Origin: Candidatus Poribacteria bacterium
GTDB taxonomy: Bacteria > Poribacteria > WGA-4E > WGA-3G
DNA length: 64,000 nt
Direction: 5' to 3'
NCBI GenBank assembly: GCA_965261435.1
Contig: CBDHDL010000021.1
Coordinates: forward strand, 142,872 to 206,871
Shown: piece after piece, positions 14,463-51,300 of the stretch
How positions within the stretch are numbered: position 1 is the stretch's first letter
Layout of the letters: every line of letters begins with the position of its first letter
The notes under the pieces: model-generated
Seen by the model: the letters and a program-made list of their open reading frames with translations, nothing else
The model's database searches: none
Told to the model about the DNA's origin: nothing
Position numbers and translations under genes: made by a program

Positions 14463-14500
14463 GATAGTCCTTTCCGATGTGTTTGTTTATTTTATTCTTC

Positions 14501-17264: not shown

Positions 17265-17741
17265 TTAATCGAGATTCAAGTACCCATACCAACTGTGTGC
17301 CTGCTTCAAGATATGCAAACACCTTTCTTGAATTTGATGAATCGTGTCAGTTGAAAATACTACCTCTACAGCAATATTTGGTGCGACATAGAATGACTTA
17401 TAATTGTAATCAGGAAGTCGCTCAGTTGAAATATAGGATAAATCTGGTATTAGTCCATATTCTCCAATTTTATATGCAGTGTATGGAAAATATATTCTTC
17501 CTATACTATTGTCACGAACATATTCACCTAAAAAGAAAGCAGTATTAGTACAAGCTCCTCCTAATTCCAATGTCTTTGGTTGCATATACACTAATTCTCC
17601 ATTAACATATTCATAACCCTCTAAGTCACTTTCAAGGAACTCCTCTAAGGTCATTACTGTCTTTCCAGGAGATAGGACATCTTGTTTGTAATGATAAATG
17701 TCTTGTGAATTCATGCATTTTCTCCAGTGTAAATTTGGCAT
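17265..17741 (-). CDS. Uma2 family (DUF820) putative endonuclease
   Basis: YEYVNGELVYMQP; GLIPDLSYIS; APNIAVEVVFSTD match the Uma2 PD-(D/E)xK pattern. The true start is probably the internal MTLEEF. Confidence 0.5.
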   Translation of the reverse strand: MPNLHWRKCMNSQDIYHYKQDVLSPGKTVMTLEEFLESDLEGYEYVNGELVYMQPKTLELGGACTNTAFFLGEYVRDNSIGRIYFPYTAYKIGEYGLIPDLSYISTERLPDYNYKSFYVAPNIAVEVVFSTDTIHQIQERCLHILKQAHSWYGYLNLD

Positions 17742-25924: not shown

Positions 25925-25968
25925 TAATACTCCATGAAAGTTCTACCGTTAACCTGTAACTATCAAAT

Positions 25969-26760: not shown

Positions 26761-26762
26761 TC

Positions 26763-26960
26763 CTACTGTCCTCCCCGCTGTATATAGTTTTCGACGAATT
26801 CCTCAGAATCTTCTTCTAAAATCTCATCGATTTCGTCAAGTAGTGCATCTAAGTCTTCGGTTAATTCGTCAACATTATCATTGAGTTCGGGATTAGGATA
26901 AATCTCCTCATTTTCTTTGATGGAGTTATCTTTGTATTCTTGCTGTTTTTCGCTTGGCAT
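26763..26960 (-). CDS. pup: prokaryotic ubiquitin-like protein Pup
   Basis: 65-aa acidic protein ending in ...FVENYIQRGGQ, the Pup C-terminal GGQ. It sits between dop and prcB, and its stop is 3 nt from the prcB start. Confidence 0.8.
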   Translation of the reverse strand: MPSEKQQEYKDNSIKENEEIYPNPELNDNVDELTEDLDALLDEIDEILEEDSEEFVENYIQRGGQ

Positions 26961-27056
26961 GTCGTGCTCCTTATTAGAATTACAGTTACGAAAACCTGTA
27001 TACCGATGTTATCTTACTTTGACAAGAGGGTTAAACATCTTTCAACAAGATTATTT

Positions 27057-28538: not shown

Positions 28539-28637
28539 ATTTCTTTGTGTCAGTCATTCAAATGTTTAGGCAAATGTTTAGGACAAAATTCCGTTGAAAA
28601 TCTAATCTAAAATACAATAGTATCATCAACTGATATT

Positions 28638-33724: not shown

Positions 33725-34240
33725 TCAACGATATTTTTCCGATGTTTCCATCTGAACTGCTTTCTCAATATCTACGTCGGAAGTTAAAATACGCGTCCAA
33801 TCACTTAATTCTACTTCATGACCATCAGTATCATCCAAGGCAAAGTAGACAAGTGTTTCTAAAGTTTTAGACAACTGCGTATCACGAAAAAGTGCTTGGA
33901 ACCAGATACCGAAAAGTTTTAATGCCTCGGATGATTCTGAGAATACCCAAAAGATTACACGGCAGAAATCAAGTCCTTCGTCAACTGATTGGTGCGAAAT
34001 CCATACTTCAGAAGGAAAATCGTGAAAATGGGGTAGAAGATCAGCAATAATGACTGTTTTTTCATGATTCAAGTATGTAATCTCAGGAAAGATGTCTAAT
34101 TGGATAGAATATTTCTGTGCATAAAGTGTAGTTTCTTGAATTTTAGTGTTCATTATCACTCTCCAGTCGCAATATAACAGAATGTGGTACAAAGAACGCA
34201 AGCTAACAGAATGCCTCTTATTGGCGAGGGTGTTGTTCAA
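33725..34240 (-). CDS. hypothetical protein
   Basis: 171-aa ORF with no recognisable motif. Confidence 0.3.
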   Translation of the reverse strand: MNNTLANKRHSVSLRSLYHILLYCDWRVIMNTKIQETTLYAQKYSIQLDIFPEITYLNHEKTVIIADLLPHFHDFPSEVWISHQSVDEGLDFCRVIFWVFSESSEALKLFGIWFQALFRDTQLSKTLETLVYFALDDTDGHEVELSDWTRILTSDVDIEKAVQMETSEKYR

Positions 34241-34940
34241 AATAAGCCCAAAATATTATAGTTGTAAATTAGCAAAAATTGTCTTATTATAACTGTAATA
34301 CGATTTATGGTAGTGTGAGCGTTCACACTATATTGATTCTTAGCAAGTGCTACTTTTTAGGTGTGTCTTTTATCTAAAACTGTACCATCAAAAATGATAT
34401 GTCCGTTGTGGGTTTGATTCAGGTGCGGTTTAACACTTTCCCAGACACAACGGGGTAGTAAACGATCACTCTATATGCGTCAATTTAGTGAATTTCCCAG
34501 GCCGGTAGGTGCGATTTCCTAATCGCGCTGGATCCTTCGCGAAAACCTTTATGAACGCAATTCGCACAAAGCCGGTTCGGTTAGGAAACCGAACCTACCG
34601 ACCTGAAATTTATAGCGGGATTCTCCTTAAAGTGACGCTTACGGGGTGGTAAACGATCACCCGCAAAATAACGATTAATTTGATCATGACTGAACTGTTC
34701 ACAGTGATCCGTAAAATTGATTATAGCATAGTTGACAAGTGTAGTTAGTAGATATTGACAATAATTTACTGTTTTGTCAATACTTAACTAAAAATAAACG
34801 GAGATACTCCATCATAAGAGATTGTTTGAGATTGCTATTAAGTATTATATTAACCCAAGTCGCCGCCTTGTAGCATAATCTGTTAGATTGTGCCTGTGAG
34901 GGTGCAATCTAACAGTTTACGCTACGATATATTATGAAAA

Positions 34941-37900
34941 ATGGATTATTTTCTATTTAAGGAATTATTAATGTCTCATAGAAAATATGGAAGATGGTAT
35001 GTAACATTTTTACTTTTGTGTGTTTTTGTCCTCTATTCTATAAGTTATGCGGATGTGACTCCTGTTGCTGACCGCACGCCACAAGTGCGTGATGCGATTG
35101 TTGCTGCAGTACCGGGTGTGGATTCTGCAGCCGATGTGACTGCGGAGCATCTGTCAACGATGACGAGTCTTACCCTGCGTTTGTTAAAGATAACGTCGTT
35201 GGCATCAGGTGATTTTTCTGGGTTAACAGGTATGACTTCTCTGAACCTCTACGGGAACCAGCTCTCCAGTTTACCTGCTGGTATTTTTGAAGGGTTGACA
35301 TCTTTGACAACACTACGTTTAGGGAGAAACGCTGTGGATCCTCTCCCTTTGACTGTATCATTAGAAAAGGTTGCCGAAGGTGAGTTCAAGGCGGTTGTCC
35401 CTGCAGGAGCGACGTTTGATATTGTTTTACCGATCACTGTTGCAAATGGCAGTATCACGGGTGGTACGACAGCACTCACAATTTCTCAGGGTGGCACAGA
35501 GAGTAGCCTGTTTGAGGTAACACGCACCCCTGGTACAACAGGTGAAGTCACCGTTGATATTGGTACATTACCGAGTTTGCCTCGTAATCATTATGGTTAC
35601 GAACTTGTCAAATCCGATGCACTTCTCCTGACTATCATCGGTGGCATAAACACGGCACCTACTTTTGCTGAAGGCAATATCACTATACGTACCATTGCAG
35701 AAAATGTCTCGGTAGGCACGAACATCGGTGCGCCGATAACAGCCACGGATGTAGAGGATGACACACTGACTTGGACCCTCGGTGGCGTTGATGCCGATTC
35801 CTTTGAGATAAATAGTACAACAGGGCAGCTTAAGACCAAAGCACCGCTTGACTATGAAACCAAGCGTGTCTATTCGGTGTCCCTCACAGTTGCTGATGAA
35901 GAGCTATCCGATACGATAACGGTAATTATCAGCGTGATTGACGTAAGTGATACTGTTGTCGCTGCGGATGTTTTTCCTGTCGTTGACCGCACGCCACAAG
36001 TGCGTGATGCAATCGTGGCGGCGATCCCCACTGTGCGTGATGCAACCCAAGTAACCGCCACACACCTCGCAAGTATAACAAGTCTGAACCTGCGTAGCAA
36101 AGGTATTTCTGCACTGAAAATAGGTGATTTTTCTGGACTTGTCGCACTTACAAATCTCAATCTATTTGGGAATCAACTTTCCAGTCTACCCGTAGGCACT
36201 TTTGATGGTTTGGGGGCACTCACTACGCTCCGATTAGGTGGCAACGTTGTTGACCCACTCCCGTTGATCGTGTCTTTACAACAGGTCCGTGATAGCGAAT
36301 ATCGTGCGATAATACCTACTGGCGCGCCTTTCCCGATCCGCCTCCCGATTACCGTCACTGATAGTAGTATTAGCGGTGGGATAACATCTGTTGTGATCTC
36401 ACAAGGTAGGCGTCATAGTGCCCCATTTACCGTAGTCGGCACCTCCGCAAAAGTGTCTATCGGCATGTTGCCCGGAGTGCCGCGTAACCATTACGGGTAT
36501 GTGCTTGCACAATCCACCGTCAGCAGCCGCACCGAACAAGTGGCAACTGCGATTGCTGCTGCGATAGGTGTTAGCGATAGTCGTTCTGTGACCGAGATAG
36601 ACCTTGCTACGATAACAAGTCTCGATCTCTCAGGAACTTCTCTTACGACGCTCAAAACAGGCGATTTTGCGGATATGGTATCGTTGACAACACTCAACTT
36701 GTCAAACAATGCACTGACGTACCTACCGGCTGACATCTTTGATGACACACCGTCGCTGCGTTCCATTACTTTAGCCAATAACCAGCTTTCAAGTCTCCCT
36801 GTTGGATTGTTCACGGGGTTGTCGTTTCTGAGCACGGTTGACCTCAGTGGCAACGGCATCACAAGCTTATCAGATGGAACATTCAGTGAGTTATCTACGT
36901 TGACAACCCTCAATTTGTCCAACAACAAGATGTCTACGTTACCAGCTGGCATTTTTGAGGGGTTGACATCGTTGAATCAACTCTCATTAAGTGGGAATAC
37001 AGTGGATCCGTTGCAGATAGGTGTATCACTCCAGAAGGTAGGAATAAATCAGTTTAAAGCAGTCGCTCTCACAGGTGCGCCGTTTAATATCGTGTTGCCA
37101 CTCGAACGGATAAATGGCACGGTTCGCGGCGTGGCAACAACCATTCAGATACCGAAAGGCAGTGTGGAAAGCCAACCCTTGACAATGATCCGGATGCCCA
37201 ACACTATTGCAGCAGTTGAAGTAGATATAGTCAATGTGCCGCAGCTCCCCTCAAATCATAACGGGTACGCGCTTGTGAAATCTATGACTCGGCGGTTAGA
37301 AGTACTCCCGATCTTGAACTCGCCACCCGTGTTCACTGAAGGCACAAGCACGACTCGCAATATCGCAGAGAATACCGCAGCAGGCACAAACATCGGTGAT
37401 CCTGTTTCAGCGACAGATGTTGATGAAGACACGTTAACCTACCGGATCGGTGGTACAGATGCAGCCGCTTTCGCTATTGATACATCCTCCGGACAACTGC
37501 GAACAAGTGCAATCTTAGACTATGAAAACAAGAACTCTTATTCTATCACCGTCTCGGTTTCTGATGGCAATGGTGGAAGTGATAGCATTACCGTCACTAT
37601 CACTGTGACGGATGTTAGTGAAACTAAGATAACACCTGCGATTAGTGACCGCACACCACAGGTACGTGATGCCATCGTTGCTGCAGCCAGTGTTTCCTCC
37701 GCTGCTGATGTGAACGCAGCGCACCTCACAGCGATCAGAACTCTGGACCTTTTAGACCACTCCATCAGTTCCTTGAAAGCAGGTGATTTCAGTGGACTTA
37801 CCTCACTGATATGGATCGATCTGTCTTCCAATTCCATAAGTGATATATCTGCCCTTGAGGACTTGACTTCACTTGAAACGCTCCGTCTGTATGACAATTC

Positions 37901-39038
37901 CATAAGTGATATATCTGTCCTTTCAGGGTTGACTTCATTGACAACACTCAATCTGTCTGGTAATTCCATAGGTGATATATCTGCACTTTCAGGATTGACT
38001 TCACTGACAACGCTCAATCTGTCTATCAATTCCATAAGTGATATATCTGCACTTTCAGGGTTGACTTCACTGACAAGGCTCGGTCTCAGGGGTAATTCCA
38101 TTTCAGATTACGGACCGCTGCGCAGGCTACTCGCAGCAATTGAGGCAGCTGGTAATAGTTTATCACTTGATACTACTATCCCGCTTGTCGGAAACAACAA
38201 CGATGCCCCCATATTCACAGATGGCACCAGCACGACACGTTCTATCGTTGAAAATACTGGATCTGGTGTCAATATCGGTCCTGCGGTATCAGCAACCGAT
38301 GCGGATAACGATACACTCACATATACGCTCATTGGTACGGATGCGTCATCATTTAGCATTGTCAGTTCATCAGGACAGCTCCAAACAAAAGCATCCCTTG
38401 ACTATGAAAACAAAAACTCTTATTCTGTCACCATCTCTGTCTCTGATAGCAACGGTGGGACAGATAGCATTACCGTCACTATCAATGTTACGGATGTGAG
38501 TGAAACGACAATAACACTTGTCAGTGAACGAACATCACAGGTACGCGATGCTATTGTCGCCGCACTCCGTGGTGTTTCCTCCGCGGCGGATGTGACCGCA
38601 GCACACCTCACAACAATTACATCTTTGGACCTTTCAGACCAATCCATCAGTTCATTGAAACCAGGTGATTTCAGTGGACTTTCTTCACTGACAACGCTCC
38701 GTCTGTATGACAATTCCATAAGTGATATATCTGCACTTTCAGGGTTGACTTCACTGACAACGCTCAATCTGTCTGGCAATTCCATAAGTGACATATCTGC
38801 ACTTTCAGGGTTGACTTCACTGACAAGGCTCAATCTGTCTATCAATTCCATAAATGATATATCTGTCCTTTCAGGGTTGACTTCACTGACAAGGCTCAAT
38901 CTGTCTATCAATTCCATAAGTGATATATCTGCACTTTCAGGGTTGACTTCACTGACAAGGCTCGGTCTCAGGGGTAATTCCATTTCAGATTACGGACCGC
39001 TGCGCAGGCTACTCGCAGCACTTGAGGCAAGCTGGTAA
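34941..39038 (+). CDS. giant surface protein, segment 1 (signal peptide, Ig/cadherin-like repeats, LRR modules); open frame ends at a +1 frameshift
   Basis: Signal-like N-terminus. Repeated module RTPQVRDAIVAA...AADVTAAHL followed by LRRs (NSISDISALSGLTSLTTLNL). Cadherin-like repeats (LDYE.K..YS.TV.VSDG...D.ITVTI.VTDV). It stops at 39036 where ...LEAAGNSLSLDTTIP of every other module reads gcaAgctggtaa, with an extra A at about 39029. Confidence 0.7.
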   Translation: MDYFLFKELLMSHRKYGRWYVTFLLLCVFVLYSISYADVTPVADRTPQVRDAIVAAVPGVDSAADVTAEHLSTMTSLTLRLLKITSLASGDFSGLTGMTSLNLYGNQLSSLPAGIFEGLTSLTTLRLGRNAVDPLPLTVSLEKVAEGEFKAVVPAGATFDIVLPITVANGSITGGTTALTISQGGTESSLFEVTRTPGTTGEVTVDIGTLPSLPRNHYGYELVKSDALLLTIIGGINTAPTFAEGNITIRTIAENVSVGTNIGAPITATDVEDDTLTWTLGGVDADSFEINSTTGQLKTKAPLDYETKRVYSVSLTVADEELSDTITVIISVIDVSDTVVAADVFPVVDRTPQVRDAIVAAIPTVRDATQVTATHLASITSLNLRSKGISALKIGDFSGLVALTNLNLFGNQLSSLPVGTFDGLGALTTLRLGGNVVDPLPLIVSLQQVRDSEYRAIIPTGAPFPIRLPITVTDSSISGGITSVVISQGRRHSAPFTVVGTSAKVSIGMLPGVPRNHYGYVLAQSTVSSRTEQVATAIAAAIGVSDSRSVTEIDLATITSLDLSGTSLTTLKTGDFADMVSLTTLNLSNNALTYLPADIFDDTPSLRSITLANNQLSSLPVGLFTGLSFLSTVDLSGNGITSLSDGTFSELSTLTTLNLSNNKMSTLPAGIFEGLTSLNQLSLSGNTVDPLQIGVSLQKVGINQFKAVALTGAPFNIVLPLERINGTVRGVATTIQIPKGSVESQPLTMIRMPNTIAAVEVDIVNVPQLPSNHNGYALVKSMTRRLEVLPILNSPPVFTEGTSTTRNIAENTAAGTNIGDPVSATDVDEDTLTYRIGGTDAAAFAIDTSSGQLRTSAILDYENKNSYSITVSVSDGNGGSDSITVTITVTDVSETKITPAISDRTPQVRDAIVAAASVSSAADVNAAHLTAIRTLDLLDHSISSLKAGDFSGLTSLIWIDLSSNSISDISALEDLTSLETLRLYDNSISDISVLSGLTSLTTLNLSGNSIGDISALSGLTSLTTLNLSINSISDISALSGLTSLTRLGLRGNSISDYGPLRRLLAAIEAAGNSLSLDTTIPLVGNNNDAPIFTDGTSTTRSIVENTGSGVNIGPAVSATDADNDTLTYTLIGTDASSFSIVSSSGQLQTKASLDYENKNSYSVTISVSDSNGGTDSITVTINVTDVSETTITLVSERTSQVRDAIVAALRGVSSAADVTAAHLTTITSLDLSDQSISSLKPGDFSGLSSLTTLRLYDNSISDISALSGLTSLTTLNLSGNSISDISALSGLTSLTRLNLSINSINDISVLSGLTSLTRLNLSINSISDISALSGLTSLTRLGLRGNSISDYGPLRRLLAALEASW

Positions 39039-40986
39039 TAGTTTATCACTTGATACTACTATCCCACCTGTCCGCAGCAACAACAATGCCCCCGTATTCA
39101 CAGATGGCACGAGCACAACACGCTCTGTCGCGGAAAACAGTGGTTCTGGTGTCAATATCGGTTCTGTGGTATCAGCAACCGATGCGGATAACGATACACT
39201 TACATATACGCTCATTGGCACAGATGCGTCATCATTTAGCATTATCAGTTCATCAGGACAGCTCCAAACAAAAGCATCCCTTGACTATGAAAACAAAAAC
39301 TCTTATACAGTCACAGTGTCAGTTTCTGATGGCAACGGTGGGACAGATAGCATTACCGTCACTATCAATGTTACGGATGTTAGTGAAACGACGATAACAC
39401 TCGTCAGTGAAAGAACATCACAGGTGCGCGATGCTATTGTCGCCGCACTCCATGGTGTTTCCTCCGCGGCGGATGTGACCGCAGCACACCTCACAGCGAT
39501 TACATCTTTGGACCTTTCAGACCAATCCATCAGTTCATTGAAACCAGGTGATTTCAGTGAACTTACCTCACTGACAACGCTCAATCTGTCTTACAATTCC
39601 ATAGGTGATATATCTGCACTTGAGGACTTGACTTCACTGACAACGCTCAATCTGGCTGGCAATTCCATAAGTGATATATCTATCCTTTCAGGGTTAACTT
39701 CACTGACAAGGCTTAATCTGTCTATCAATTCCATAAGTGATATATCTGCCCTTGAGAACTTGACTTCACTGACAAGGCTCAATCTATCTGACAATTCCAT
39801 AAGTGATATATCTGCCCTTGAGAACTTGACTTCACTGACAAGGCTCGGTCTCAGGGGTAATTCCATTTCAGATTACGGACCGTTGCGCAGGCTCCTCGCA
39901 GCACTTGAGGCAGCTGGTAATAGTTTATCACTTGATACTACTATCCCGTCTGTCCGTAGCAACAACAATGCACCCGTATTCACAGATGGCACGAGTACAA
40001 CGCGCCACATCCCAGAAAACAGTGGTTCTGGTGTTAACATCGGTTCTGCGGTCTCAGCAACCGATGCGGATAACGATACACTCACATATACGCTCATTGG
40101 CACAGATGCGTCATCATTTAGCGTTGTCAGTTCATCAGGACAGCTCCAAACAAAAGCATCCCTTGACTATGAAAACAAAAACTCATATACAGTCACAGTG
40201 TCAGTTTCTGATGGAAAGAGTGGAACCGATAGCATTACCGTCACTATCAATGTTACGGATGTTAGTGATACGCCGCTAACATCTGACAGTGAGCGAACAC
40301 CGCAAGTGCGTGATGCCATCGTTGCTGCAGCCGGTGTAGCATCTGCGACTGATGTGACCACAACACACCTTGCAACGATTACATCTTTAGACCTTTCAAA
40401 CCTATCCATCGGTTCCTTGAAAGCAGGTGATTTCAGTGGACTTACCTCACTGACATGGCTCGATTTGTCTGACAATTCCATAAGTGATATATCTGCACTT
40501 GAGGACTTGACTTCACTTGAAACGCTCCATCTGTATGACAATTCCATAAGTGATATATCTGCACTCTCAGGGTTGACTTCACTGACAACGCTCAATCTGG
40601 CTGACAATTCCATAAGTGATATATCTGCGCTTGAGGACTTGACTTCACTGACAAAGCTCGGTCTCAGGGGTAATTCCATTTCAGATTACGGACCGTTGCG
40701 CAGGCTCCTCGCAGCACTTGAGGCAACTGGTAATAGTTTATCACTTGATACTACTATCCCGCCTGTCCGTAGCAACAACAATGCACCCGTATTCACAGAT
40801 GGCACGAGCACAACGCGTTTTGTCGTGGAGAACACTGGTTCTGGTGTTAACATCGGTTCTGCGGTATCAGCAACCGATGCGGATAACGATACACTTGCAT
40901 ATACGCTCATTGGCACGGATGCGTCCTCGTTTAGCATTGTCGGTTCATCCGGGCAGCTTGCTAACAAAAGCAACTTTGGATTATGA
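39022..40986 (+). CDS. same giant gene, segment 2 (cadherin-like plus LRR modules); ends at a second +1 frameshift
   Basis: Continues the about 880-bp module periodicity. The first residues of the ORF call are out of frame. It ends at 40986 where gggcagctTgctaac (extra T at about 40959) replaces the gggcagctgctaac of the following units. Confidence 0.65.
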   Translation: MRQAGNSLSLDTTIPPVRSNNNAPVFTDGTSTTRSVAENSGSGVNIGSVVSATDADNDTLTYTLIGTDASSFSIISSSGQLQTKASLDYENKNSYTVTVSVSDGNGGTDSITVTINVTDVSETTITLVSERTSQVRDAIVAALHGVSSAADVTAAHLTAITSLDLSDQSISSLKPGDFSELTSLTTLNLSYNSIGDISALEDLTSLTTLNLAGNSISDISILSGLTSLTRLNLSINSISDISALENLTSLTRLNLSDNSISDISALENLTSLTRLGLRGNSISDYGPLRRLLAALEAAGNSLSLDTTIPSVRSNNNAPVFTDGTSTTRHIPENSGSGVNIGSAVSATDADNDTLTYTLIGTDASSFSVVSSSGQLQTKASLDYENKNSYTVTVSVSDGKSGTDSITVTINVTDVSDTPLTSDSERTPQVRDAIVAAAGVASATDVTTTHLATITSLDLSNLSIGSLKAGDFSGLTSLTWLDLSDNSISDISALEDLTSLETLHLYDNSISDISALSGLTSLTTLNLADNSISDISALEDLTSLTKLGLRGNSISDYGPLRRLLAALEATGNSLSLDTTIPPVRSNNNAPVFTDGTSTTRFVVENTGSGVNIGSAVSATDADNDTLAYTLIGTDASSFSIVGSSGQLANKSNFGL

Positions 40987-43357
40987 GAAAAAAGTCCAGT
41001 ATTCTGTGACGGTGAAAGTTTCTGATGGAAAACTCACGGACACAATCACGGTTACTATCAATGTGACAGATGTGCAGGAGAACCGAGCCCCGCTATTTAG
41101 TGCTGACACAGCAACACGGTCTGTCGCAGAAAACACTGCTGCTGGACAAAACATCGGGGCTGCAATAACAGCAACAGACTCGGATAACGACAACTTGACC
41201 TATACTCTTGAGGGTACGGATGCGTCCTCGTTTAGCATTGTCAGTTCATCCGGGCAGCTGCTAACAAAAGCAACTTTGGATTATGAGAAAAAAGTCCAGT
41301 ATTCTGTGACGGTGAAAGTTTCTGATGGAAAACTCACGGACACAATCACGGTTACTATCAATGTGACAGATGTGCAGGAGAACCGAGCCCCGCTATTTAG
41401 TGCTGACACAGCAACACGGTCTGTCGCAGAAAACACTGCTGCTGGACAAAACATCGGGGCTGCAATAACAGCAACAGACTCGGATAACGACAACTTGACC
41501 TATACTCTTGAGGGTACGGATGCGTCCTCGTTTAGCATTGTCAGTTCATCCGGGCAGCTGCTAACAAAAGCAACTTTGAATTTTGAAAGCAAAAGCAGCT
41601 ATGAAGTGACGGTGTCTGTTTCTGATGGGAATGGCGGAAGTGATAGTATTACTGTCACTATCAATGTGGCGGATGTGAATGAGAACCAACCTGTATTTAG
41701 TGATGGCGCAAGCACGACGCGGTCTATCGCAGAAAACACTGTCGCAGGTCAAAACATCGGAGACCCAGTATCCGCAACGGATGCGGATACTGGTGATACG
41801 TTAACCTATAGTCTTGGCGGTACGGATGCGTCATCGTTTGATATTATTAGCACATCAGGACAACTTCAAACCAAAGTTGCTTTGGATTATGAGGGGTCGA
41901 AAAATTCCTATACCGTCACCGTGTCTGTCTCTGATGGTAAAGGTGGGACTGATAAGATTACCGTGTCCATCATCGTCACAGATGTAACCGAAACTACTAC
42001 GGCACCTCAGATACAGATTACACCTGTCGGGAAACGGACATCACAGGTGCGTGATGCGATTGTGGCTGACATCTCTGGTGTTTCCTCCGCGGAAGATGTG
42101 ACCGAAGCACACCTCACAACGATCACATCTTTGGACCTTTCAAACCAATCCATCAGTTCCTTGAAAGCAGGTGATTTCAGTGGACTGACTTCGCTGACAC
42201 ACCTCCGTCTGTATAACAATTCCATAAGTGATATATCGGCTCTTTCGGACTTGACTTCACTGACATGGCTCTTTCTGTCTAACAATTCCATAAGTGATAT
42301 ATCGGCTCTTTCAGGGTTGACTAAATTGACAAGGCTCACTCTGTATGACAATTCCGTAAGCGATATATCGGCTCTTTTGGACTTGACTTCACTGACATGG
42401 CTCCATCTGTATGACAATTCTATAAGTGATATATCGGCTCTTTCAGCCTTGACTGAATTGACATGGCTTGAACTGGGGGAGAATTCCATAAGTGATATAT
42501 CGGCTCTTTCAGCCTTGACAGACCTGAGATCGCTCAATCTGTATAACAATACCATAAGTGATATATCGGCTCTCTCGGGCATGACTAAAATGACAGACCT
42601 CTATCTGTCTAAAAATTCCATAAGTGATATATCGGCTCTCTCGGGCATGACTAAAATGACAACGCTCTATCTGTCTAACAATTCCATAAGTGATATATCG
42701 GACCTTGAAGACTTGACTAAATTGACAACGCTCTATCTGTCTAACAATTCCATAAGTGATATATCGGCTCTCTCGGGCATGACTAAAATGACATGGCTCT
42801 TTCTGTCTAACAATTCCATAAGTGATATATCGGACCTTGAAGACTTGACTAAATTGACAACGCTCTATCTGTCTAACAATTCCATAAGTGATATATCTGC
42901 CCTTGAAGACTTGACTAAATTGACATGGCTTCAACTGGATGGCAATTCCATTTCAGATTACGGACCGTTGGGCAGGCTCAAGGCAGCAATTGAAGCAGCC
43001 GGTAATAGTTTATCACTTGACATTACTATCCCAGCAGATGCTCCCTCACATGCCGCTGTTCCTAAGTCAACATCACTTTTACCCAACTTCCCCAACCCGT
43101 TCAACCCGGAAACGTGGATTCCGTATCAGTTAGCCAAACCCTCAGCGGTGACAATAACGATATTTGATGTCCGGGGACGTGTTGTGCGGACGTTGATTTT
43201 AGGCACTCAACCTTCGGGTATCTATAGAAGTCAAAGCAAGGCAGCCCATTGGGATGGTAAAAACGCGTTCGGGGAAAAGGTCGCAGGAGGAATGTATTTC
43301 TATAGGCTTACGGCAGGTGATTTTTCTGCCACACGCAAAATGTTAATTTTGAAGTGA
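40957..43357 (+). CDS. same giant gene, segment 3: cadherin-like repeats, LRR array and T9SS-type C-terminal sorting domain
   Basis: In-frame continuation LLTKATLDYEKKVQYSVTVKVSDG. The C-terminus NFPNPFNPETWIPYQL...VTITIFDVRGRVVRTL...GIYRSQSKAAHWDGKNAFGEKVAGGMYFYRLTAGDFSATRKMLILK matches the T9SS-type CTD. The listed ORF start at 40718 is an out-of-frame artefact. Confidence 0.7.
40981..41580. repeat. perfect 2 x 300-bp tandem duplication (one cadherin-like repeat unit) inside the giant gene
   Basis: 40981..41280 and 41281..41580 appear identical. The antisense ORFs 40981..41193 and 41281..41493 have identical 70-aa translations. Confidence 0.85.
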
Positions 43358-43411
43358 CTTTTGACAAAATGGGCAAATTTGAAATAGAATCAAACAATTA
43401 AAGGAGTTTAT

Positions 43412-45760
43412 GTGAAAACTTTAGGCAATAAATCAAAGAAAATTGGGCAAACCTTGATGATTCTTAGTTTTGCTTTTCTAATGTTAACAACAGTTCCTGT
43501 TATAGCGAATGAATTTGAAATCGGAACACAGTTCGGGATTTCCCGTTTTATTCCTGACAGCGAGGATTCTTCAACGACAAGTATTACCTTCACTCGGTTA
43601 CCAGCAGGAACACTTGTTGATATTGGGACATCTCCAACATCACTGTACGCGACGTTCTTTCTGGGCAAAAAATATGCGGTTGGGTCAGAATTCAGTTTTG
43701 GAGAAATGTCAGTGTCAGATGAGTCTTGGGCCGATGAGGATAACGCAAGCTTAATGACACTTCACCTTGGTGGTCGCGCATCATACTTTTTGTTTAGTCA
43801 TTCAGTATCTTCACCTTACGTATTCGGACAGATGGCTCGCACTATATTTATTGGTGATGCTAATTTCTTTTTTGAAGGTGACAACAACTCATCTCTTGCG
43901 AGTTTGGGGGGCGGTTTAGGGTATCAGTGGCGTATAGGCCCTGCTTTTGTGCTGCGGACAGAAGCACAGTATCAACGCGTGTTTGTTGTAGATGAAGATC
44001 AAAATGCAAATGAGTTCTCATTTATTATTGGCATCGGCACACGGTTCGGAGGCAATAACAACCCAGCAGAGGCAAAACTTGATCTCAATGACACAGAATT
44101 CACGCCTGTCAGTGCAAGAACACCACAGGTACGTGACGCGATTGTTGCTGCGGTGCCGGGTGTGAATAATGCTGATGCTGTGACCGCAGCACACCTCGCG
44201 GAGATTACATCTTTAGACCTTGCAGACCCATCCATCAGTTCCCTAAAAGCAGGTGATTTCAATGGACTTACCTCACTGACAGAACTCTTTCTGACTTCCA
44301 TAAGTGATATATCTGTACTTGAAGATTTGTCTTCACTGACAGAACTCAATTTGTGGAATAATTCCATAAGTGATATATCCGCACTTGAAAACCTAACAGC
44401 ACTGACAGATCTTTTTTTGTCTTCCAATTCCATAAGTGACATATCTGCGCTTGAGAACCTCACAGGACTGACAACGCTCGATCTGTCTTCCAGTACCGTA
44501 AGTGATATATCCGCCATTGAAAACCTAACAGCACTGGAATGGCTCAAGCTGGGTAACAGTTCCATCAGCGATATATCTGCGCTTCAAAACTTGACAGCAC
44601 TGAAAGAACTCTATCTGTCTTCCAGTACCATAAGTAATATATCCACACTTGAAAACCTAACAGCATTGGAATGGCTCGATTTGTCTTCCAATTCCATAAG
44701 TGATATATCTGCCCTTGAAAACATGACAGCACTAACATTTCTCGATCTGTCTTCCAATTCCATAAGTGATATATCCGCACTTGAAAACTTGACAGCACTG
44801 ACAATGCTCAATCTTTATGGTAACAACATCAAGGATATATCTGCGTTTGAGGACATGACTTCACTAACAGATCTCTATCTGAGTCACAATTCCATAAGTG
44901 ATATATCCGCACTTGAAAACTTGACAGCACTGAGAACACTCAATCTGGCTAAGAATTCCGTAAGTGATATATCTGCGCTTGAAAATCTCACAGCACTGAC
45001 AGAGCTCACTCTACCTGAAAGTTCCATAAATGATATATCTGCGCTTGAAAATCTCACAGCACTGACAACGCTCTATCTGGGTAGCAACGATATCAATGAT
45101 ATATCTACGCTTGAAAACTTGACAGCACTGACAGAACTCCATCTGTTTTCCAATTCCATAAGTGATATATCTGCGCTTGAAAACATGACCTTACTGAGAG
45201 AGCTGAATCTGGGGGGTAATTCCATAAGTGATATACCGTCTCTTGAAAACTTGACAGCACTGACAACGCTCTATCTGTGGGATAATTCCATAAGCGATAT
45301 ATCTGTGCTTGAAAACCTGACTTCACTGAGAACACTGAATATATATCGCAACGACATCAAGGATATATCTGGGCTTGAAAACCTGACCTTATTGAAAGAT
45401 CTCTATCTGAGTCACAATTCCATAAGTGATATATCCGCGCTTGAAAACTTGACAGTGCTAACAAGGTTGACTTTGCATCACAATGCTATCAGCGATGTAT
45501 CTGCGCTTGAAAACCTGAATGCACTGAAAATGCTCAAGCTGAGTCACAATTCCATCAAGGATATATCTGCACTTGAAAACCTGATTGCACTGACAGAGCT
45601 CAATCTGGATAATAATTCTATAAGTGATATATCCGCACTTGAAAATTTGACAGCATTGAAAAAGCTTGAACTGCGGAACAATCCGATTTCAGATTACGGA
45701 CCGCTTCGTAGACTCAAAGCAAAAAATCCAGGTATGCAGACTGATATTACTATTCCGTAG
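43412..45760 (+). CDS. paralogous LRR protein with N-terminal signal peptide and outer-membrane beta-barrel-like domain; C-terminal sorting domain lost
   Basis: GTG start 5 nt after AAGGAG. Signal MILSFAFLMLTTVPVIA. About 200-aa region of alternating hydrophobic strands ending ...FSFIIGIGTRFGG (OMP beta-barrel-like). Then the RTPQVRDAIVAAVPGV cap and about 25 LRRs (NSISDISALENLTAL). It ends ...TDITIP-TAG. Confidence 0.7.
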   Translation: MKTLGNKSKKIGQTLMILSFAFLMLTTVPVIANEFEIGTQFGISRFIPDSEDSSTTSITFTRLPAGTLVDIGTSPTSLYATFFLGKKYAVGSEFSFGEMSVSDESWADEDNASLMTLHLGGRASYFLFSHSVSSPYVFGQMARTIFIGDANFFFEGDNNSSLASLGGGLGYQWRIGPAFVLRTEAQYQRVFVVDEDQNANEFSFIIGIGTRFGGNNNPAEAKLDLNDTEFTPVSARTPQVRDAIVAAVPGVNNADAVTAAHLAEITSLDLADPSISSLKAGDFNGLTSLTELFLTSISDISVLEDLSSLTELNLWNNSISDISALENLTALTDLFLSSNSISDISALENLTGLTTLDLSSSTVSDISAIENLTALEWLKLGNSSISDISALQNLTALKELYLSSSTISNISTLENLTALEWLDLSSNSISDISALENMTALTFLDLSSNSISDISALENLTALTMLNLYGNNIKDISAFEDMTSLTDLYLSHNSISDISALENLTALRTLNLAKNSVSDISALENLTALTELTLPESSINDISALENLTALTTLYLGSNDINDISTLENLTALTELHLFSNSISDISALENMTLLRELNLGGNSISDIPSLENLTALTTLYLWDNSISDISVLENLTSLRTLNIYRNDIKDISGLENLTLLKDLYLSHNSISDISALENLTVLTRLTLHHNAISDVSALENLNALKMLKLSHNSIKDISALENLIALTELNLDNNSISDISALENLTALKKLELRNNPISDYGPLRRLKAKNPGMQTDITIP

Positions 45761-45829
45761 CAGTTTCTACTTCTGTACACGGAAGGTAGGGACTTTACTG
45801 CAACACGGAAGATGTTGATACTGAAGTAA
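45761..45829 (+). pseudogene. vestigial T9SS CTD tail, in frame after the TAG stop of the LRR paralog
   Basis: In-frame translation after the stop: QFLLLYTEGRDFTATRKMLILK-stop, versus FYRLTAGDFSATRKMLILK at the end of 40957..43357. Confidence 0.6.
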
Positions 45830-46138
45830 ACGCTACCAAACGGAAGGTAAAAACCATATATGAAAAAACTAACATTTGTCTTGCACATCTACACGAATTG
45901 GCGTCCCTTCAAAAGTATTTCTCTCAGCGCAGTGTGATTATCATCGCATTGGCGTGGTTGACAGGTGCAGGTCTGGTTGCATGAACTACCATTTTCTGTA
46001 ATGTTCAGTGAACAAGTTGCCGATGAACACGGTGCGGAAACGGATGACATCTTGTTATCAGTGTTCCGTGAACCGACATAATACCATTTCTATAAATTAT
46101 TGTGTCATTAGACTGTTATTATTGTAGTCATTTTTCAG

Positions 46139-46202
46139 GCCACAAACTGAAAGTTTGTGGTACAAAAAAGAGACATTTTCAAGAAGAAATGGTATAAGAT
46201 TG
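46139..46202. repeat. dispersed about 65-bp element with perfect hairpin CCACAAACT-gaa-AGTTTGTGG followed by TACAAAAAAGAGACATTTTCAAGAAGAAATGGTAT
   Basis: Second copy at 63404..63470 (about 85% identity, with compensatory hairpin). The 3' half alone recurs at 16585..16625 (aacattttcaattagaaatggtatta). This copy is about 75 bp upstream of apt. Confidence 0.6.
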
Positions 46203-46275
46203 GAGGAGGGATACCTTGTCCATTTCCAAGTATTTCTAAACGTTACAACAAAATACCGAGAGGTTTTACAATTTT

Positions 46276-46791
46276 ATGAACGATCTAACGAAGTTTATCC
46301 GAACGATACCTGATTTTCCGAAACAGGGTATTGCATTTAAAGACATTACACCACTTTTAGGGAATGCCTCTGTTTTCAACGCTGTAATTGAAGTCTACGC
46401 GAATCATTACAAAGATGCAGGAGTTGACGTAATTGTAGGTCCTGAAGCCAGAGGGTTCATTTTTGCATCTGCACTTGCATATCGGATGGGAACAGGCTTT
46501 GCTCCGGTTCGTAAAAAAGGAAAGTTACCTTATGACACATATCAAGTGACCTATGAACTGGAGTATGGCAAGGATACCCTCACTATTCATCAAGATGCTT
46601 TTCCAAAGGGGAGTCGCGTGCTGTTATGTGATGATCTCTTGGCTACTGGTGGCACACTTGCGGCAACGGTTGAACTTATTGAAAAACTGGACGGAGACAT
46701 TGTCGGTATTGCCCTCTTAATAGAACTAACGGAACTCAACGGACGAGAAAAGATCGGGAATTTACCAATCTTTTCTTTCTTTGAATTGTAG
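46276..46791 (+). CDS. apt: adenine phosphoribosyltransferase
   Basis: FPKQGIAFKDITPLL and the PRPP-binding motif VLLCDDLLATGGTLAA. 171 aa. Confidence 0.85.
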   Translation: MNDLTKFIRTIPDFPKQGIAFKDITPLLGNASVFNAVIEVYANHYKDAGVDVIVGPEARGFIFASALAYRMGTGFAPVRKKGKLPYDTYQVTYELEYGKDTLTIHQDAFPKGSRVLLCDDLLATGGTLAATVELIEKLDGDIVGIALLIELTELNGREKIGNLPIFSFFEL

Positions 46792-46802
46792 ATGCCCGAA
46801 TT

Positions 46803-47495
46803 TTGCCCTATAAGAAACGAAAACAGATGAAAGAAAGCCTACAAAACCTCATTGATATTATCATGAACCCGAAGGCAGCGTTTACTCGGCTAAAATCCGA
46901 GCCAAAGTGGGTGGTTGTTTTCATAATTTACTGTTTATTTTCTATCATTTTAGCGTGGGCACTCGTCCCATATACGCAGCAGCTCCTCGCTGTTCGCTCC
47001 GCAAATACCTTACCTCCTAACAAACAGCCTTCTGTTATATCTTCTGCGATATTTTCAATGAGTTACAGTTTCTTGATGACGATTTTGTTCAGTATCATTC
47101 TCACAACCTCAGTCGGATTGTGCAAGATAGCGAGTGCTGTAAAATTTAGACATATCTACGCAGCCCTTGTACATATTATGCTGATTCGCTCAATGACATT
47201 TTTCGTGAATGCGGGTCTGCTTCCAATTTTTAAAAATATTGAAGACATTCAATCCGTAATAGATACGAGAGCTATCCCAGGACTGCATCTGTTAGGAGGA
47301 CCCATTCAAAATCAACTTGTTCTGATGTTCCTCTCCTACATAAACCCCTTGGCTGTGTGGTATGTTTTTATCATAACAATCGGTATTCATATTTTTGCAG
47401 AAGTCAGCAAAGTTAAGGCATTGTGCGTAGCACTCATCATGTGGCTATTAAGAGTAAGTCTTGATGTAACATTTGTTGCGTTATTTTTATTGTAA
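46803..47495 (+). CDS. hypothetical polytopic membrane protein (Yip1-like?)
   Basis: 230 aa with about five hydrophobic helices. Family assignment is weak. Confidence 0.4.
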   Translation: MPYKKRKQMKESLQNLIDIIMNPKAAFTRLKSEPKWVVVFIIYCLFSIILAWALVPYTQQLLAVRSANTLPPNKQPSVISSAIFSMSYSFLMTILFSIILTTSVGLCKIASAVKFRHIYAALVHIMLIRSMTFFVNAGLLPIFKNIEDIQSVIDTRAIPGLHLLGGPIQNQLVLMFLSYINPLAVWYVFIITIGIHIFAEVSKVKALCVALIMWLLRVSLDVTFVALFLL

Positions 47496-47975
47496 TCCTT
47501 TATACATGATGCACTCAATGACCTATTTGAAAAACAAGAGTATCCGCGTATAGCGGATTAGCCATCAGAAAGAGAGAGCGAAGGACGAGTTGTTGAGTCT
47601 CATGACCGGAAACATTCACCTGGTTGTGTAAAGTTTTTGGCAAAGCATTGATTTTTTGCTTATGTTTGGTTTTGTTTACATAGCACTCCGCTGGAGTGCG
47701 GGCACTTGACATACATTTTTCTATAGACATAATGCTCCGCTGGAGCAAAAAGCGTTCTTGACAGGTAAGAGATATCCTCACGCCAGAGGCGTGATATGTC
47801 TATAGAACTCACAATGTCCAAAACCCCCACTCCAGCGGAGTGCTATGTCTTGGATCGAGCCGATAAGGAAACGCTGCCAAAATATTTACAGACCCGCAAC
47901 TTAGGTTAAAATAGACAAAGACATCTACACATGTTATAATATTTGATTGGAACTGTAGTCAATCTATACCAGAAC

Positions 47976-48325
47976 GTATCTCATAAATCATTTATATGGT
48001 GAGTTTTTTGTTGTTTGTGATGTATAACGGACAGGGAGACCCAGTCCCTACGAACAGAACGGACAGGGAAACCCAGTCCCTACGAACGGAACGGACAGGG
48101 AGACCACGCCCCTACGAACGGAACGGACAGGGAGACCCAGTCCCTACGAACAGAACGGACAGGGAAACCCAGTCCCTACGAACAAACGGACAGGGAGACC
48201 CAGTCCCTACGAACAAACGGACAGGGAAACCCAGTCCCTACGAACAAACGGACAGGGAAACCCAGTCCCTACGAAAAACAGGTGCTGTGATGAGAAATTT
48301 ATGGACAATTAGGTTTATGAGATAC
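47976..48325. repeat. about 350-bp element with 12-13-bp terminal inverted repeats (GTATCTCATAAA ... TTTATGAGATAC) containing the dispersed 110-bp element and a spacerless tandem array; it ends 17 nt before the metH ATG
   Basis: Left end 47976..47987 gtatctcataaa; right end 48314..48325 tttatgagatac. The interior matches 12693..12805. Confidence 0.55.
48026..48278. repeat. tandem array of eight 31-32-nt units AACGGACAGGGA(G/A)ACCCAGTCCCTACGAAC(A/G)(G/A), each containing an imperfect hairpin
   Basis: Units at 48026, 48058, 48090, 48122, 48154, 48186, 48217 and 48248. No spacers. The ORF 47996..48370 is just a translation of this array. Confidence 0.85.
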
Positions 48326-48341
48326 ACTCTAAATCTATATC

Positions 48342-51300
48342 ATGGAAGAGAATTTAGCGTTTATGGCTGATCCAGATCGAATTACACAGTTGAAACATGC
48401 ACTGTCAGAGCGGATTTTGGTGCTTGATGGTGCGATGGGTTCACTTATACAGACGTATCAACTCTCGGAAGCGGATTTTCGAGGTGAGACGTTCGCTGAT
48501 CATACTTCTGAACTCAAAGGTTATAATGACCTGTTATCTATCACGCAACCACAAATTATCAGAGAAATTCATAGCAGTTACTGTAACGCAGGTGCTGACA
48601 TACTCACAACTAACACCTTCACAAGCACGTCGGTGTCAATGGCAGACTATCAGCTTGAAGAATTTGCATATCAGGTCAACGTTTCAGCAGCCCAAATTGC
48701 TCGTGAAATAGCTGATGCTTGCTCAACAGTTGAAAAGACTCATTTCGTTGCAGGTAGCATGGGACCAACGAATCGAAGTTGTTCAATCTCTCCGGATGTA
48801 AACGATCCAGGTTACCGTAATATCACTTTTGCTGAACTCGTTTCTGCCTATACGACACAAGCTGAAGGCTTAATTGATGGCGGTGTGGATTTACTACTCG
48901 TTGAGACCGTTATGGACACACTAAATTGCAAAGCAGCACTTTTTGCAATTCAAACTCTAACAGAAAAACGTGGGATCAACATCCCGACTATCGTTTCATC
49001 AGACAGGAGTGGTGGCGGCGGAAGAAACCTGTCAGGACAAACAGTCGAAGCATTCTGGAATTCTATTCGACACGTAGACTTACTTGCTGTCGGTTTAAAC
49101 TGTGGTTTTGGAGCGAAGCAGATAAGACCCTTTCTTGTGGAGATGTCAAAGCTTGCAGACATTCCCATCATTTGTTATCCAAATGCGGGTCTACCCAATG
49201 AACTTGGTCACTATACTCAGACACCTGAAGAACTGGGTAACTGGATGCACGATTTCGCTCGCAACGGATTCGTCAATATCGTAGGTAGTTGTTGTGGTAG
49301 TCAACCTGAGCATATAGAAGCGATTGTCAAGGTCGCGGCAGCGTATCCACCCCGTCAACTCCAATCACAAAAACCTGCCTGCAGACTCAGCGGTTTAGAG
49401 GCATTCAATATTACACCGGAATCCCTCTTTGTAAACGTTGGCGAAAGAACAAATGTCACAGGTTCACGAAGATTTGCATCACTCATCAAGAAGGAAGATT
49501 ATGAAACAGCATTAGAAGTCGCTCGTGATCAAGTCGAAAACGGTGCACAACTGATCGATATTAATATGGATGCGGGTCTGTTAGATGCCAAAACTGCCAT
49601 AGTCAAGTTCATAAATCTCATCGCTGCAGAACCAGATATAAGCCGTGTTCCTATTATGATAGATTCCAGTAAATGGGAAGTAATTGATGCAGGTTTACAA
49701 TGTATACAAGGAAAAGGTGTCGTCAACTCAATTAGTTTGAAAGAGGGTGAGGACGATTTCTTAGATAAAGCACGAAGTATTAGACATTACGGCGCTGCTG
49801 TCATTGTAATGGCGTTTGATGAAAAAGGACAAGCCGATACGCTTCAACGCAAAGTAGAAATTTGTCAAAGAGCGTATCAATTGTTAATAGAAGAAGTTGA
49901 TTTCCCCCCTGAAGACATTATCTTTGATCCTAATATCTTCGCGATAGCAACAGGGATTGATGAGCATAATGAATATGCGCTTGCTTTTATAGATGCATGC
50001 AAGCAGATCAAAGAGACTTGTCCGCACGCCTTAGTCAGTGGAGGCGTCAGTAACGTTTCCTTTGCCTTTCGCGGTAACGATACAGTTCGCGAAGCGATGC
50101 ACGCAGCGTTTCTTTACCATGCGATCAATGCTGGTATGGATATGGGGATCGTAAATGCTGGACAACTTGCTGTCTATGACGACATCCCTAAACCCCTCTT
50201 AGATTCTGTAGAAGATGTATTATTTAATCGACGAAAAGATGCAACAGACCGACTCGTTAATTTGGCAGAAACATTGCATGGTACAAAAAAGAAGAAACGT
50301 GTTGATAAAGAATGGCGGAAGCTCTCCGTTGAAGATCGGTTAAGTCACGCCCTCGTAGAAGGTGTCACTGAACACATCGTGGAAGATACTGAGGAAGCAA
50401 GATTAAAATACAAGCGTCCGATACAGGTAATTGAAGGTCCTCTGATGTTCGGAATGGACAGAGTCGGTGAGTTGTTCGGAGACGGTAAGATGTTCCTACC
50501 TCAAGTTATCAAAAGCGCACAGGTAATGAAACGCGCTGTTGCACATTTAATTCCATTTATTGAAAAGGAGCAATCTGAAGGAGAAATCAAATCAAGAGGG
50601 AAATTAGTCATGGCAACAGTGAAAGGTGATGTCCATGACATTGGGAAGAACATCGTTGGTGTGGTCCTTGGTTGTAACAACTATGAAATCATTGACCTTG
50701 GGGTCATGGTAGCTGCAGAAGATATATTGGAAACAGCACGCAAAGAAGATGCTGATATAATTGGTTTAAGTGGTCTAATTACACCTTCATTGGATGAGAT
50801 GGTTCATGTTGCAAAGGAGATGGAAAGAGAAGGTTTCAGTATTCCACTCCTCATTGGTGGTGCCACTACATCAAAAATACATACAGCTATTAAGATTGAA
50901 CCTGAATACAATGGGGCAACGATACACGTCAAAGATGCATCCCGCAGTGTTGGTGTCGTTCGCAACTTACTGAGCAATGAAAACCGACAAACAATAGTCA
51001 ACCAGACACGTGAAGAATATGAAGGAATTCGTAAGAAGCGAGCCAAAACGCAACAACGAACCAATCTTTTACCATTTGGAACAGCACAGCAACGCAAACT
51101 AAGACTTGATTGGCAAGACTACAATCCAGATAAACCGAGAATGACAGGAGTCAAGGTTTATGAGGATTTTCCGCTTGAAGAACTTGTCACCTATATTGAT
51201 TGGACACCTTTTTTCACTACTTGGGAAATGAAAGGAAAATATCCTAAAATATTGGATGATTCAAAGATAGGTCCAAAGGCACAAGAACTGTATAAAGATG

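Follow-up and report, generated by a model that had tools for sequence, protein, structure and literature searches.

The subject of this analysis is a giant leucine-rich-repeat (LRR) and cadherin gene, and a 300-nt tandem repeat within it, located in a 64,000-nt window (the whole stretch of DNA that was analysed) of contig CBDHDL010000021.1 from the genome of a Candidatus Poribacteria bacterium. The original prediction, made from the same letters, had spoken of several surface-protein genes; we find instead a single gene at 34941-43357, cut by two 1-nt insertions that had gone unnoticed. The three resulting open reading frames (ORFs) overlap end to end, and the open frame changes from 0 to +1 to +2 at the two insertion points. 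Removal of one A (39029) and one T (40958) yields 8415 nt with one terminal stop and an encoded product of 2804 residues. The features of the gene are the following.

34941-43357, + strand: giant LRR-cadherin gene, 2804-aa product after removal of the two inserted bases
34941-39038, + strand: ORF fragment 1, 1365 aa, with a signal-like N-terminus, three modules of 24-residue LRRs plus a beta-rich domain, and cadherin units 1-3
39022-40986, + strand: ORF fragment 2, 654 aa as listed, the +1-frame continuation of the same protein, without signal peptide
40718-43357, + strand: ORF fragment 3, homologous to the rest of the protein from 40958 onward only, without signal peptide
37265-38146, 38147-39029, 39030-39911 (882-883 nt each) and 39912-40724 (813 nt), + strand: four tandem modules, 73-92% identical in pairs
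38894-39020, + strand: 127-nt exact tract, equal to 38012-38138 (exact-repeat scan, permutation test)
39029-39030, + strand: frameshift 1, one extra A relative to paralogous junctions, with a stop at 39036-39038
40915-40958, + strand: partial third copy, of duplicated-unit type, near-exact at offset 301 with a substitution at 40942
40958-40959, + strand: frameshift 2, one extra T relative to the following copies, with a stop at 40984-40986
40959-41258, + strand: copy 1 of the perfect 300-nt repeat (alignment, exact-repeat scan)
41259-41558, + strand: copy 2 of the perfect repeat (alignment), followed by a 20-nt identical continuation at 41559-41578
42208-42930, + strand: terminal LRR array of 66-nt period, 11 copies with 82% matches, and a 96-nt exact repeat at offset 132
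43088-43348, + strand: C-terminal sorting domain of the type IX secretion system (T9SS) type A / FlgD-Ig-like kind (TIGR04183, 38.5 bits against a cut-off of 23)

Both interruptions of the reading frame are visible against paralogous copies inside the gene itself, three for the first insertion and two for the second. At frameshift 1 the sequence is GGCAAGCTGG, against GGCAGCTGG or GGCAACTGG at the three paralogous junctions (in longer form, TTGAGGCAAGCTGG where the paralogous module junctions have TTGAGGCAGCTGG, twice, or TTGAGGCAACTGG), and the frameshift lies 8 nt past the 127-nt exact tract. Frameshift 2 reads CAGCTTGCTAAC where both copies downstream read CAGCTGCTAAC, and it coincides with the left boundary of the perfect repeat. 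Downstream of the shifts the frames are open for 676 and 901 codons. Fragment 1, which also holds the first modules of cadherin domain and 22-residue LRRs, is represented in public annotation by a 1355-aa coding sequence (CDS; P0089), and fragment 3, which contains three and a half cadherin units, the 13-unit LRR array and the sorting domain, by a 783-aa CDS that is 100% identical (P0003). The GC content at third codon positions is 0.40-0.44 in the giant gene against 0.30-0.36 in the flanking housekeeping genes, a difference that hints at, without proving, a different history of the gene. Its 770-nt non-coding leader (34167-34940) carries two 20-nt direct repeats (at 34450 and 34641) around a palindromic element, as well as a hairpin with 21-nt arms at 34870-34925 that ends 15 nt before the ATG.

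The predicted protein opens with MSHRKYGRWYVTFLLLCVFVLYSISYA/DV, which by its sequence resembles a Sec signal peptide and is present on fragment 1 only; this N-terminus and the C-terminal sorting domain come to lie on one polypeptide only with both frameshifts removed. The N-terminus is followed by three modules with 24-residue LRRs and a beta-rich domain without family assignment, then by four 294-residue modules, each composed of one cadherin domain, the linker RT[PS]QVRDAIVAA, an array of four to five 22-residue LRRs and a conserved LRR C-terminal cap (C-cap; GNSISDYGPLRRLLAALEAAGNSLSLDTTIP), and finally by three further cadherin domains, the 13-unit LRR array and the C-terminal domain. Pfam matches in the gene are to LRR_8, LRR_4 and Cadherin, with Por_Secre_tail at the C-terminus. 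Scores for PF00028 reach 119, 99 and 132 bits on fragments 1-3 against a cut-off of 28.8, and nine cadherin units of 98-102 residues each could be delimited. Their calcium-site motifs (AEN, LDYE, DADND/DSDND and DVNENQPVF/DVQENRAPLF) align at the sequence level with those of CELSR1 (8vy2), and alignments to CELSR1 and protocadherin entries in PDB place LDYE over LDRE and DVNENQPVF over DxNDxxPxF. LRR_4 and LRR_8 score 145-290 bits on tandem 22-residue units with an NxIxDI signature. The best PDB match of the LRR module is a bacterial chain named 'Rab family protein' (8r4b, E 1e-83), with InlA chains next (E 1e-56 to 1e-58, the best 4.5e-58). On the neighbouring LRR gene, the NCBIfam model internalin_A gives 413 bits against a cut-off of 1600 in a match that covers the LRR part only, and an internalin proper was excluded on these grounds. 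The sorting domain is matched in Pfam by PF18962 (28.4 bits) and PF13860 (29.0 bits; cut-off 27 each). Among the genes scanned in the window no T9SS machinery (PorK/L/M/N, SprA, PorU/V) was seen.

The 300-nt repeat lies in the cadherin array. A perfect pair had been reported at 40981-41280 and 41281-41580; these two stretches agree at 299 of 300 positions, the single mismatch being 41279 G against 41579 A, and perfection holds for a slightly different register, in which the maximal exact repeat spans 320 nt (40959-41278 = 41259-41578) at an offset of 300. Tandem Repeats Finder detects the 300-nt period across 40849-41760. Towards the left the repeat extends to 40915 at an offset of 301, a 1-nt register shift, with the substitution at 40942 and the extra T at 40958/59. 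The whole periodic tract covers 40915-41578, or 664 nt (about 2.2 units), and downstream of 41578 identity to the next unit falls to 74%. Because the entire window holds just three exact repeats of at least 80 nt, a chance origin of the 320-nt repeat is excluded.

Each copy had also been taken for one cadherin-like unit of 100 codons, and both the length and the family prove right (PF00028, E 1e-38; PDB cadherins, E 3e-60). The duplicated register is nevertheless shifted by about 57-58 residues with respect to the cadherin domain boundary and runs from ...LTKATLDYE to ...SSSGQL, which makes the 300-nt duplicated unit one domain length, circularly offset from that boundary. The perfect repeat is in frame and in register with the pre-existing cadherin array. 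Owing to the partial copy at 40915-40958, the cadherin of the fourth module (domain 6) is a hybrid, of module type in its 5' part and of duplicated-unit type in its 3' part; domain 7 is of the duplicated type throughout, and domain 8 is of the duplicated type at its start and of the next type at its end. Synonymous divergence between the duplicate copies is zero, and purifying selection alone was rejected as the source of their identity, since synonymous sites are identical too. By comparison, the paralogous units beside the duplicate are just 58-74% identical; among all cadherin units two are 100% identical, with a partial third, and the other seven are 53-92% identical. A run of 320 nt without a difference, set beside units so diverged, requires a very recent duplication or gene conversion, and the original prediction had drawn the same conclusion.

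At the next level of organisation the module starts had been placed close to the computed ones (38147, 39030, 39912 and 40725), and the near-identity claimed for these modules of about 880 bp was overstated: pairs are 73-92% identical, with synonymous divergence (dS) of 0.17-0.46 and a ratio of nonsynonymous to synonymous divergence (dN/dS) of 0.3-0.43. The same applies to the LRR blocks, for which 37860-38100 and the block 882 nt downstream agree at 217 of 241 positions (90%). The 127-nt exact tract joins modules whose alignment otherwise shows differences in 21% of its columns (permutation p<0.0002), and four further module pairs have exact runs longer than expected by permutation. The tract and the other long exact runs look like a signature of patchy gene conversion. 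In sum, the repeat hierarchy of the gene at the DNA level comprises 66-nt LRR units, 300-nt cadherin units and 882-nt modules.

The closest genomic relatives of the cadherin region are all Candidatus Poribacteria metagenome-assembled genomes (MAGs), many of them at chromosome level. A scan of genome contigs with the cadherin region returned 72 loci, mostly from Poribacteria, at 48-70% protein and 65-75% DNA identity, and none of the 72 is syntenic with the giant-gene region; the corresponding scan of metagenome contigs gave matches of 27-49% only, and a protein search with the duplicated unit alone gave nothing above 71%. In no collection searched did we find a relative of the giant gene above 72% protein identity, or a second assembly of the locus or of a close strain. 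Of the candidates scored, 6061 proteins belong to the giant-gene family at E<=1e-30, which makes the family a very large one. Exact repeats of at least 300 nt at repeat-unit-scale spacing occur seven times in the 1.27 Mb of the 72 related loci. Those of locus L008 measure 457 nt at offset 294 and 571 nt at offset 1809; others were found in L024 (479 nt, offset 603), L031 (386 nt, offset 303) and L039 (332 nt, offset 300). Five of the seven, 332-571 nt long, lie inside uninterrupted frames of 1490-4037 codons, several on chromosome-level assemblies. L008 itself (4931-17044 of OZ244616.1) is a 4037-codon open frame of the same family that contains the 571-nt repeat at its 1809-nt offset, and it shows that zero-divergence duplications of higher-order modules occur in intact genes of other Poribacteria. 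Since intact giant ORFs from other Poribacteria genomes repeatedly show exact repeats of unit period, the family appears prone to recombination. Together with the conversion-like tracts in the gene, this recurrence bears out the recombination part of an earlier reading of the locus as a hotspot.

Taken together, these data probably describe a single giant adhesin-like, eukaryote-like repeat gene of Candidatus Poribacteria whose repeats recombine and in which the 300-nt repeat is the newest event. We infer a genuine duplication, not one created by the assembly, and recombination as its origin; most likely it is recent as well, and came about by unequal recombination or gene conversion. In such a gene, repeats of three scales (66, 300 and 882 nt) would recombine with one another; older events would have given rise to the modules, now 73-92% identical with patchy exact tracts, and the latest would be represented by the 40959-41278 / 41259-41578 repeat. 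The latter could have formed when two stretches of about 64 nt (40915-40978 and the ancestral 41216-41278), nearly identical and 300 nt apart, underwent unequal crossover or slippage in frame, with the gain of one cadherin-length unit, or else by gene conversion over a tract of about 364 nt.

Several points weigh against this account. Crossover and conversion fit the 664-nt periodic tract equally well, and the repeat number, like both inserted bases, is known from the assembled consensus alone. Both insertions are found close to, or directly at, the ends of long exact tracts, and each doubles the preceding base at a place where the paralogous copies differ; a consensus error in a mixed-strain repeat would look the same in its edge position and doubled base. 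If the frameshifts are real they must be extremely young, given that 676 and 901 codons remain open behind them. Domain families are the sole source from which adhesion or host-matrix binding at the cell surface would be proposed as the function, and the same holds for the presumed export of the protein. Moreover, T9SS machinery genes have been reported missing from poribacterial single-cell genomes (PMC3909097).

As to the two insertions, we lean slightly towards real, very recent inactivating mutations rather than consensus errors. The opposite explanation, to which we give somewhat less than an even chance, takes the gene to be intact and both insertions to be consensus or polishing errors at merged near-identical repeats or strains, so that the duplication would reside in an expressed 2804-aa protein. 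The frames that stay open downstream of both sites agree with it, as does the placement of the insertions at exact-tract edges and in paralogue-variable columns (G/A at 39030; G/C/T after CAGCT at 40959); two events in 8.4 kb, against none in about 45 kb of other coding sequence, would point to a repeat-specific artefact, and related giant genes are intact in other long-read MAGs. On the other hand, the insertions occur in 2-base runs and not in the long homopolymers where long-read consensus errors concentrate, and the rest of the window is free of frameshifts. About 25 other genes of the window match their families without one, the long ones end to end, and recA, metH, rtcB, PPDK, the Pup-proteasome genes and apt are among those intact; a generally noisy assembly was rejected on this basis. 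A scan for split cadherin domains, with a hidden Markov model built from the nine cadherin units, yielded 986 domain hits across the window and the related loci, two of them split: the one at 40958, the only such case in the window, and one in a short-read MAG (L044). With one other split among so many hits, repeats alone seldom give such errors, and by the same count a family-wide habit of frameshifting or phase variation was rejected. A second cadherin gene on the contig (P0121) also looks frameshifted, which could equally mean real decay.

Were the insertions real, the duplicated region would currently lie in a pseudogene: the first 1365 residues would keep the signal peptide and be without the sorting domain, and the duplicated units would sit on a fragment without export signal, not as part of an exportable surface protein. 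In that case the insertions are perhaps by-products of recombination in a dispensable gene.

Similar interruptions were encountered elsewhere. The split gene of L044 (812-9612 of JAJDTM010000007.1), a giant LRR-cadherin gene of Poribacteria, consists of a 1953-aa and a 976-aa ORF; the loss of one base (CCTTTA to CCTTA) separates them, in that part of the cadherin unit where the window has its second frameshift. P0121, encoded on the same 4.83-Mb contig outside the window, is a cadherin fragment of 216 aa that shares 71% identity with the duplicated unit and has both ends in mid-domain, and this second cadherin gene of the genome appears to be frameshifted too. A public protein collection contains dozens of short cadherin 'proteins' (P0122-P0178) from sponge-type metagenome assemblies, whose homology ends within ...SGQLxTKAxLDYE... 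and which reach a stop a few codons later, often directly after ...GL or ...RL; their ends cluster after this motif because of an out-of-frame TGA in the conserved GAYTAYGAR motif and of the A-runs that code for QTKA. In public data, such giant genes seem often to be called in fragments.

As to the duplication itself, a conversion between two diverged units, in which about 364 nt (40915-41278) were overwritten from 41216-41578 and the number of units stayed the same, is an alternative that we take seriously without favouring it; as the unit number would be unchanged, identity alone would then be no sign of copy-number instability. It finds support in the length of the near-exact tract, which is 664 nt and not 600, in the left end of that tract, which falls within a domain whose 5' half stays module-type, and in the conversion-like exact tracts elsewhere in the gene, although the same pattern results if the two stretches of about 64 nt, nearly identical and 300 nt apart, undergo unequal crossover.

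We consider it improbable that the perfect tandem repeat is an artefact of an assembly that traversed it once too often, with one copy fewer in the true sequence. Assembly graphs do mis-resolve perfect tandem repeats, a frameshift abuts the repeat edge and the locus is known from a single assembly. Yet the source contig, at 4,832,559 bp from an uncultured sponge symbiont, points to a long-read assembly that spans the 600-nt repeat, and a 4.83-Mb contig implies reads far longer than 620 nt; an extra copy introduced in this way would also have to fall, as the observed one does, in frame and in register with the pre-existing cadherin array. Exact unit-period repeats of 332-571 nt stand in intact ORFs of several independent assemblies, chromosome-level MAGs included, and because zero-divergence unit copies recur in the gene family across such assemblies, a one-off artefact is disfavoured.

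Very unlikely, in our judgement, is a scheme in which the frameshifts are real and the flanking repeats act as in-cis repair templates, that is, recombination-based phase variation of a symbiont adhesin. A crossover of 40915-40957 with 41216-41257 would delete 301 nt, remove the extra base and restore the frame; one between the module copies that begin at 39030 and 38147 would delete 883 nt and likewise restore it, and so would gene conversion from a neighbouring copy. If this were true, export and anchoring of the C-terminal part would be switched on and off while the length changes, in an uncultured sponge symbiont. A programmed system, be it ribosomal +1 frameshifting, slipped-strand phase variation or a diversity-generating retroelement (DGR), is scarcely credible, for although there is an AAA-A slippery-like context between the extra T and the stop and the reading frames stay open, the two sites have no motif in common, their runs are just 2 nt and not contingency tracts, and the copies are identical where a DGR would leave adenine-specific mismatches. 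No reverse transcriptase, integrase, transposase or other mobility gene was found among the ORFs scanned in the window, and an Rfam search of it gave no matches. A DGR target was rejected on the identity of the repeat copies and the lack of a reverse transcriptase among the scanned ORFs; carriage by a mobile element is unsupported as well, neither reverse transcriptase, integrase, transposase, tRNA nor Rfam element having been found.

Returning to the recombining giant gene as the preferred reading, we also compared its genomic context, with a lolA-like neighbour as the anchor, to three related contigs (L090, L091 and L092). Two further features are needed here.

34167-47890, no strand assigned: lineage-specific 13.7-kb segment, absent at this position in L090 and L091, the nearest relatives found
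43412-45760, + strand: second LRR gene, with a beta-barrel-like N-terminus (OMP_b-brl, weak, E 3e-4), about 21 internalin-type LRRs and the same C-cap

The flanks of the window are 92% identical at the DNA level to L090 and 79-84% to L091, a 1.05-Mb contig. Both align with the window up to 34165 and then again from the metH promoter and gene, metH directly adjoining in them a small hypothetical gene beside lolA; L092 is likewise without the 13.7-kb segment at this site. The segment contains the giant gene, the second LRR gene, apt and a gene for a Yip1/YknW-like membrane protein, and the variability documented for the locus is the presence or absence of this whole segment at this position. No integrase, transposase or tRNA was found at the segment ends. 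Since apt is a housekeeping gene, the difference may be a rearrangement rather than a simple insertion.

Other observations concern the segment and its surroundings. In the 54-nt gap between the stop of the giant gene and the second LRR gene there is a promoter-like site (43361-43390, TTGACA-18-TAGAAT, 11/12), and the second LRR gene may be transcribed independently of the giant gene. The adenine phosphoribosyltransferase gene apt (TIGR01090, 225 bits) and that of the Yip1/YknW-like membrane protein lie at 46276-47495. Near the right end of the segment, an inverted repeat at 47678-47848 has 66-nt arms that are 76% complementary, a 39-nt spacer and CACTCCGCTGGAGTG hairpins, and may be an element resembling a miniature inverted-repeat transposable element or a bidirectional terminator. 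The metH leader (48027-48276) holds eight tandem 29-31-nt palindromic units (ACGGACAGGGAGACCCAGTCCCTACGAAC) that resemble repetitive extragenic palindromic (REP) elements, bracketed by 17-nt inverted repeats at 47971-47987 and 48314-48330. This REP-like insert of about 340 nt is absent from the 92%-identical L090, its array creates a spurious 124-aa ORF at 47996-48370, and two more REP-like copies are intergenic, at 12399-12427 and 12760-12788. Beside recA, on the minus strand, lies a complete Pup-proteasome cluster (23863-30434), which comprises an Mpa/ARC-type AAA ATPase, the alpha and beta subunits of the proteasome and two genes of the Pup-ligase family (Dop/PafA). The cluster is kept in L091 (13353-19929) and L092 (13246-19791), where a 65-aa Pup gene is called too. 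Also on the minus strand, at 5370-12160, two very large genes stand next to each other, one for a protein of 1213 aa that has a sacsin-like domain and one for a SNF2/ResIII helicase of 1027 aa, and two Uma2-family endonuclease genes are found at 17265-17741 and 23193-23825; the sacsin-like, helicase and Uma2-family genes may be related to defence.

Repetitive LRR and cadherin proteins are main candidates for the attachment of sponge symbionts to their host, or for recognition by it. The locus suggests that such genes of Poribacteria can be young, mosaic and in turnover, with a zero-divergence duplication, conversion tracts and a possible recent inactivation, and a segment that is present or absent between relatives with 92% identical flanks fits fast, lineage-specific evolution of the host interface. 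In itself the 300-nt repeat is ordinary for repetitive adhesin genes and probably a case of recent intragenic recombination, identical in-frame repeats and length change driven by recombination being well known from bacterial adhesins; what the present analysis adds is that there is one gene and not several, that it contains two frameshifts, one of which abuts the repeat, and that the segment is lineage-specific. In public annotation the giant gene is split into at least two CDSs (P0089 and P0003), and short cadherin fragments are numerous in the protein database; counts of the domains and genes of such proteins in symbiont MAGs can be skewed as a result.

Among known systems, the eukaryote-like repeat proteins of Poribacteria and other sponge symbionts share with the giant gene the phylum, the domain repertoire, a proposed role in host interaction or attachment and membership of a large paralogous family. 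Poribacteria have been described as rich in LRR (PF12799), cadherin and Por-type C-terminal domains with signal peptides (PMC3909097), and cadherin and LRR genes are enriched in sponge symbionts in general (PMC8163846). Both studies count domains; this gene, its 66/300/882-nt hierarchy, the duplication, the frameshifts and the presence or absence of the segment are not described there. The Listeria internalins (InlA, InlB and InlH) have the 22-residue LRR with the LxxLxLxxNxIxDIxxL pattern in common with it, whereas the gene studied here lacks both an Ig-like inter-repeat region and an LPXTG or GW anchor, has cadherin domains set between its LRRs and comes from a lineage of Gram-negative type. 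Animal cadherins, protocadherins and CELSR, along with bacterial cadherin proteins such as that of Saccharophagus degradans (cited in PMC8163846), likewise consist of tandem PF00028 domains of about 100 residues with xEN, LDxE, DxD and DxNDxxPxF-like motifs; the present protein differs in having no transmembrane or cytoplasmic part and a bacterial secretion context, and its calcium binding and homophilic adhesion are putative. With T9SS type-A cargo (gingipains and SprB-like giant adhesins) it shares a C-terminal domain of about 80 residues that scores above the TIGR04183 cut-off, and a giant repetitive architecture, in a phylum outside Bacteroidota. The closest functional analogy is offered by the Periscope Proteins and other variable-length surface proteins (SasG/Aap, Rib/alpha C, Esp, CdrA and Sgo_0707; PMC8201768), which are also large secreted or surface proteins of tandem folded domains, likewise need long reads for counting their units, and for which high DNA identity of adjacent domain repeats has been proposed to drive in-frame gain and loss of units (PMC8201768). 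Here, by contrast, identity is confined to two units, the array is broken up by LRR blocks rather than forming a homogeneous stalk, the gene is frameshifted as assembled, and the anchor is a T9SS-type C-terminal domain and not an LPXTG or type I secretion signal; by analogy, the locus may nevertheless work in principle like this class.

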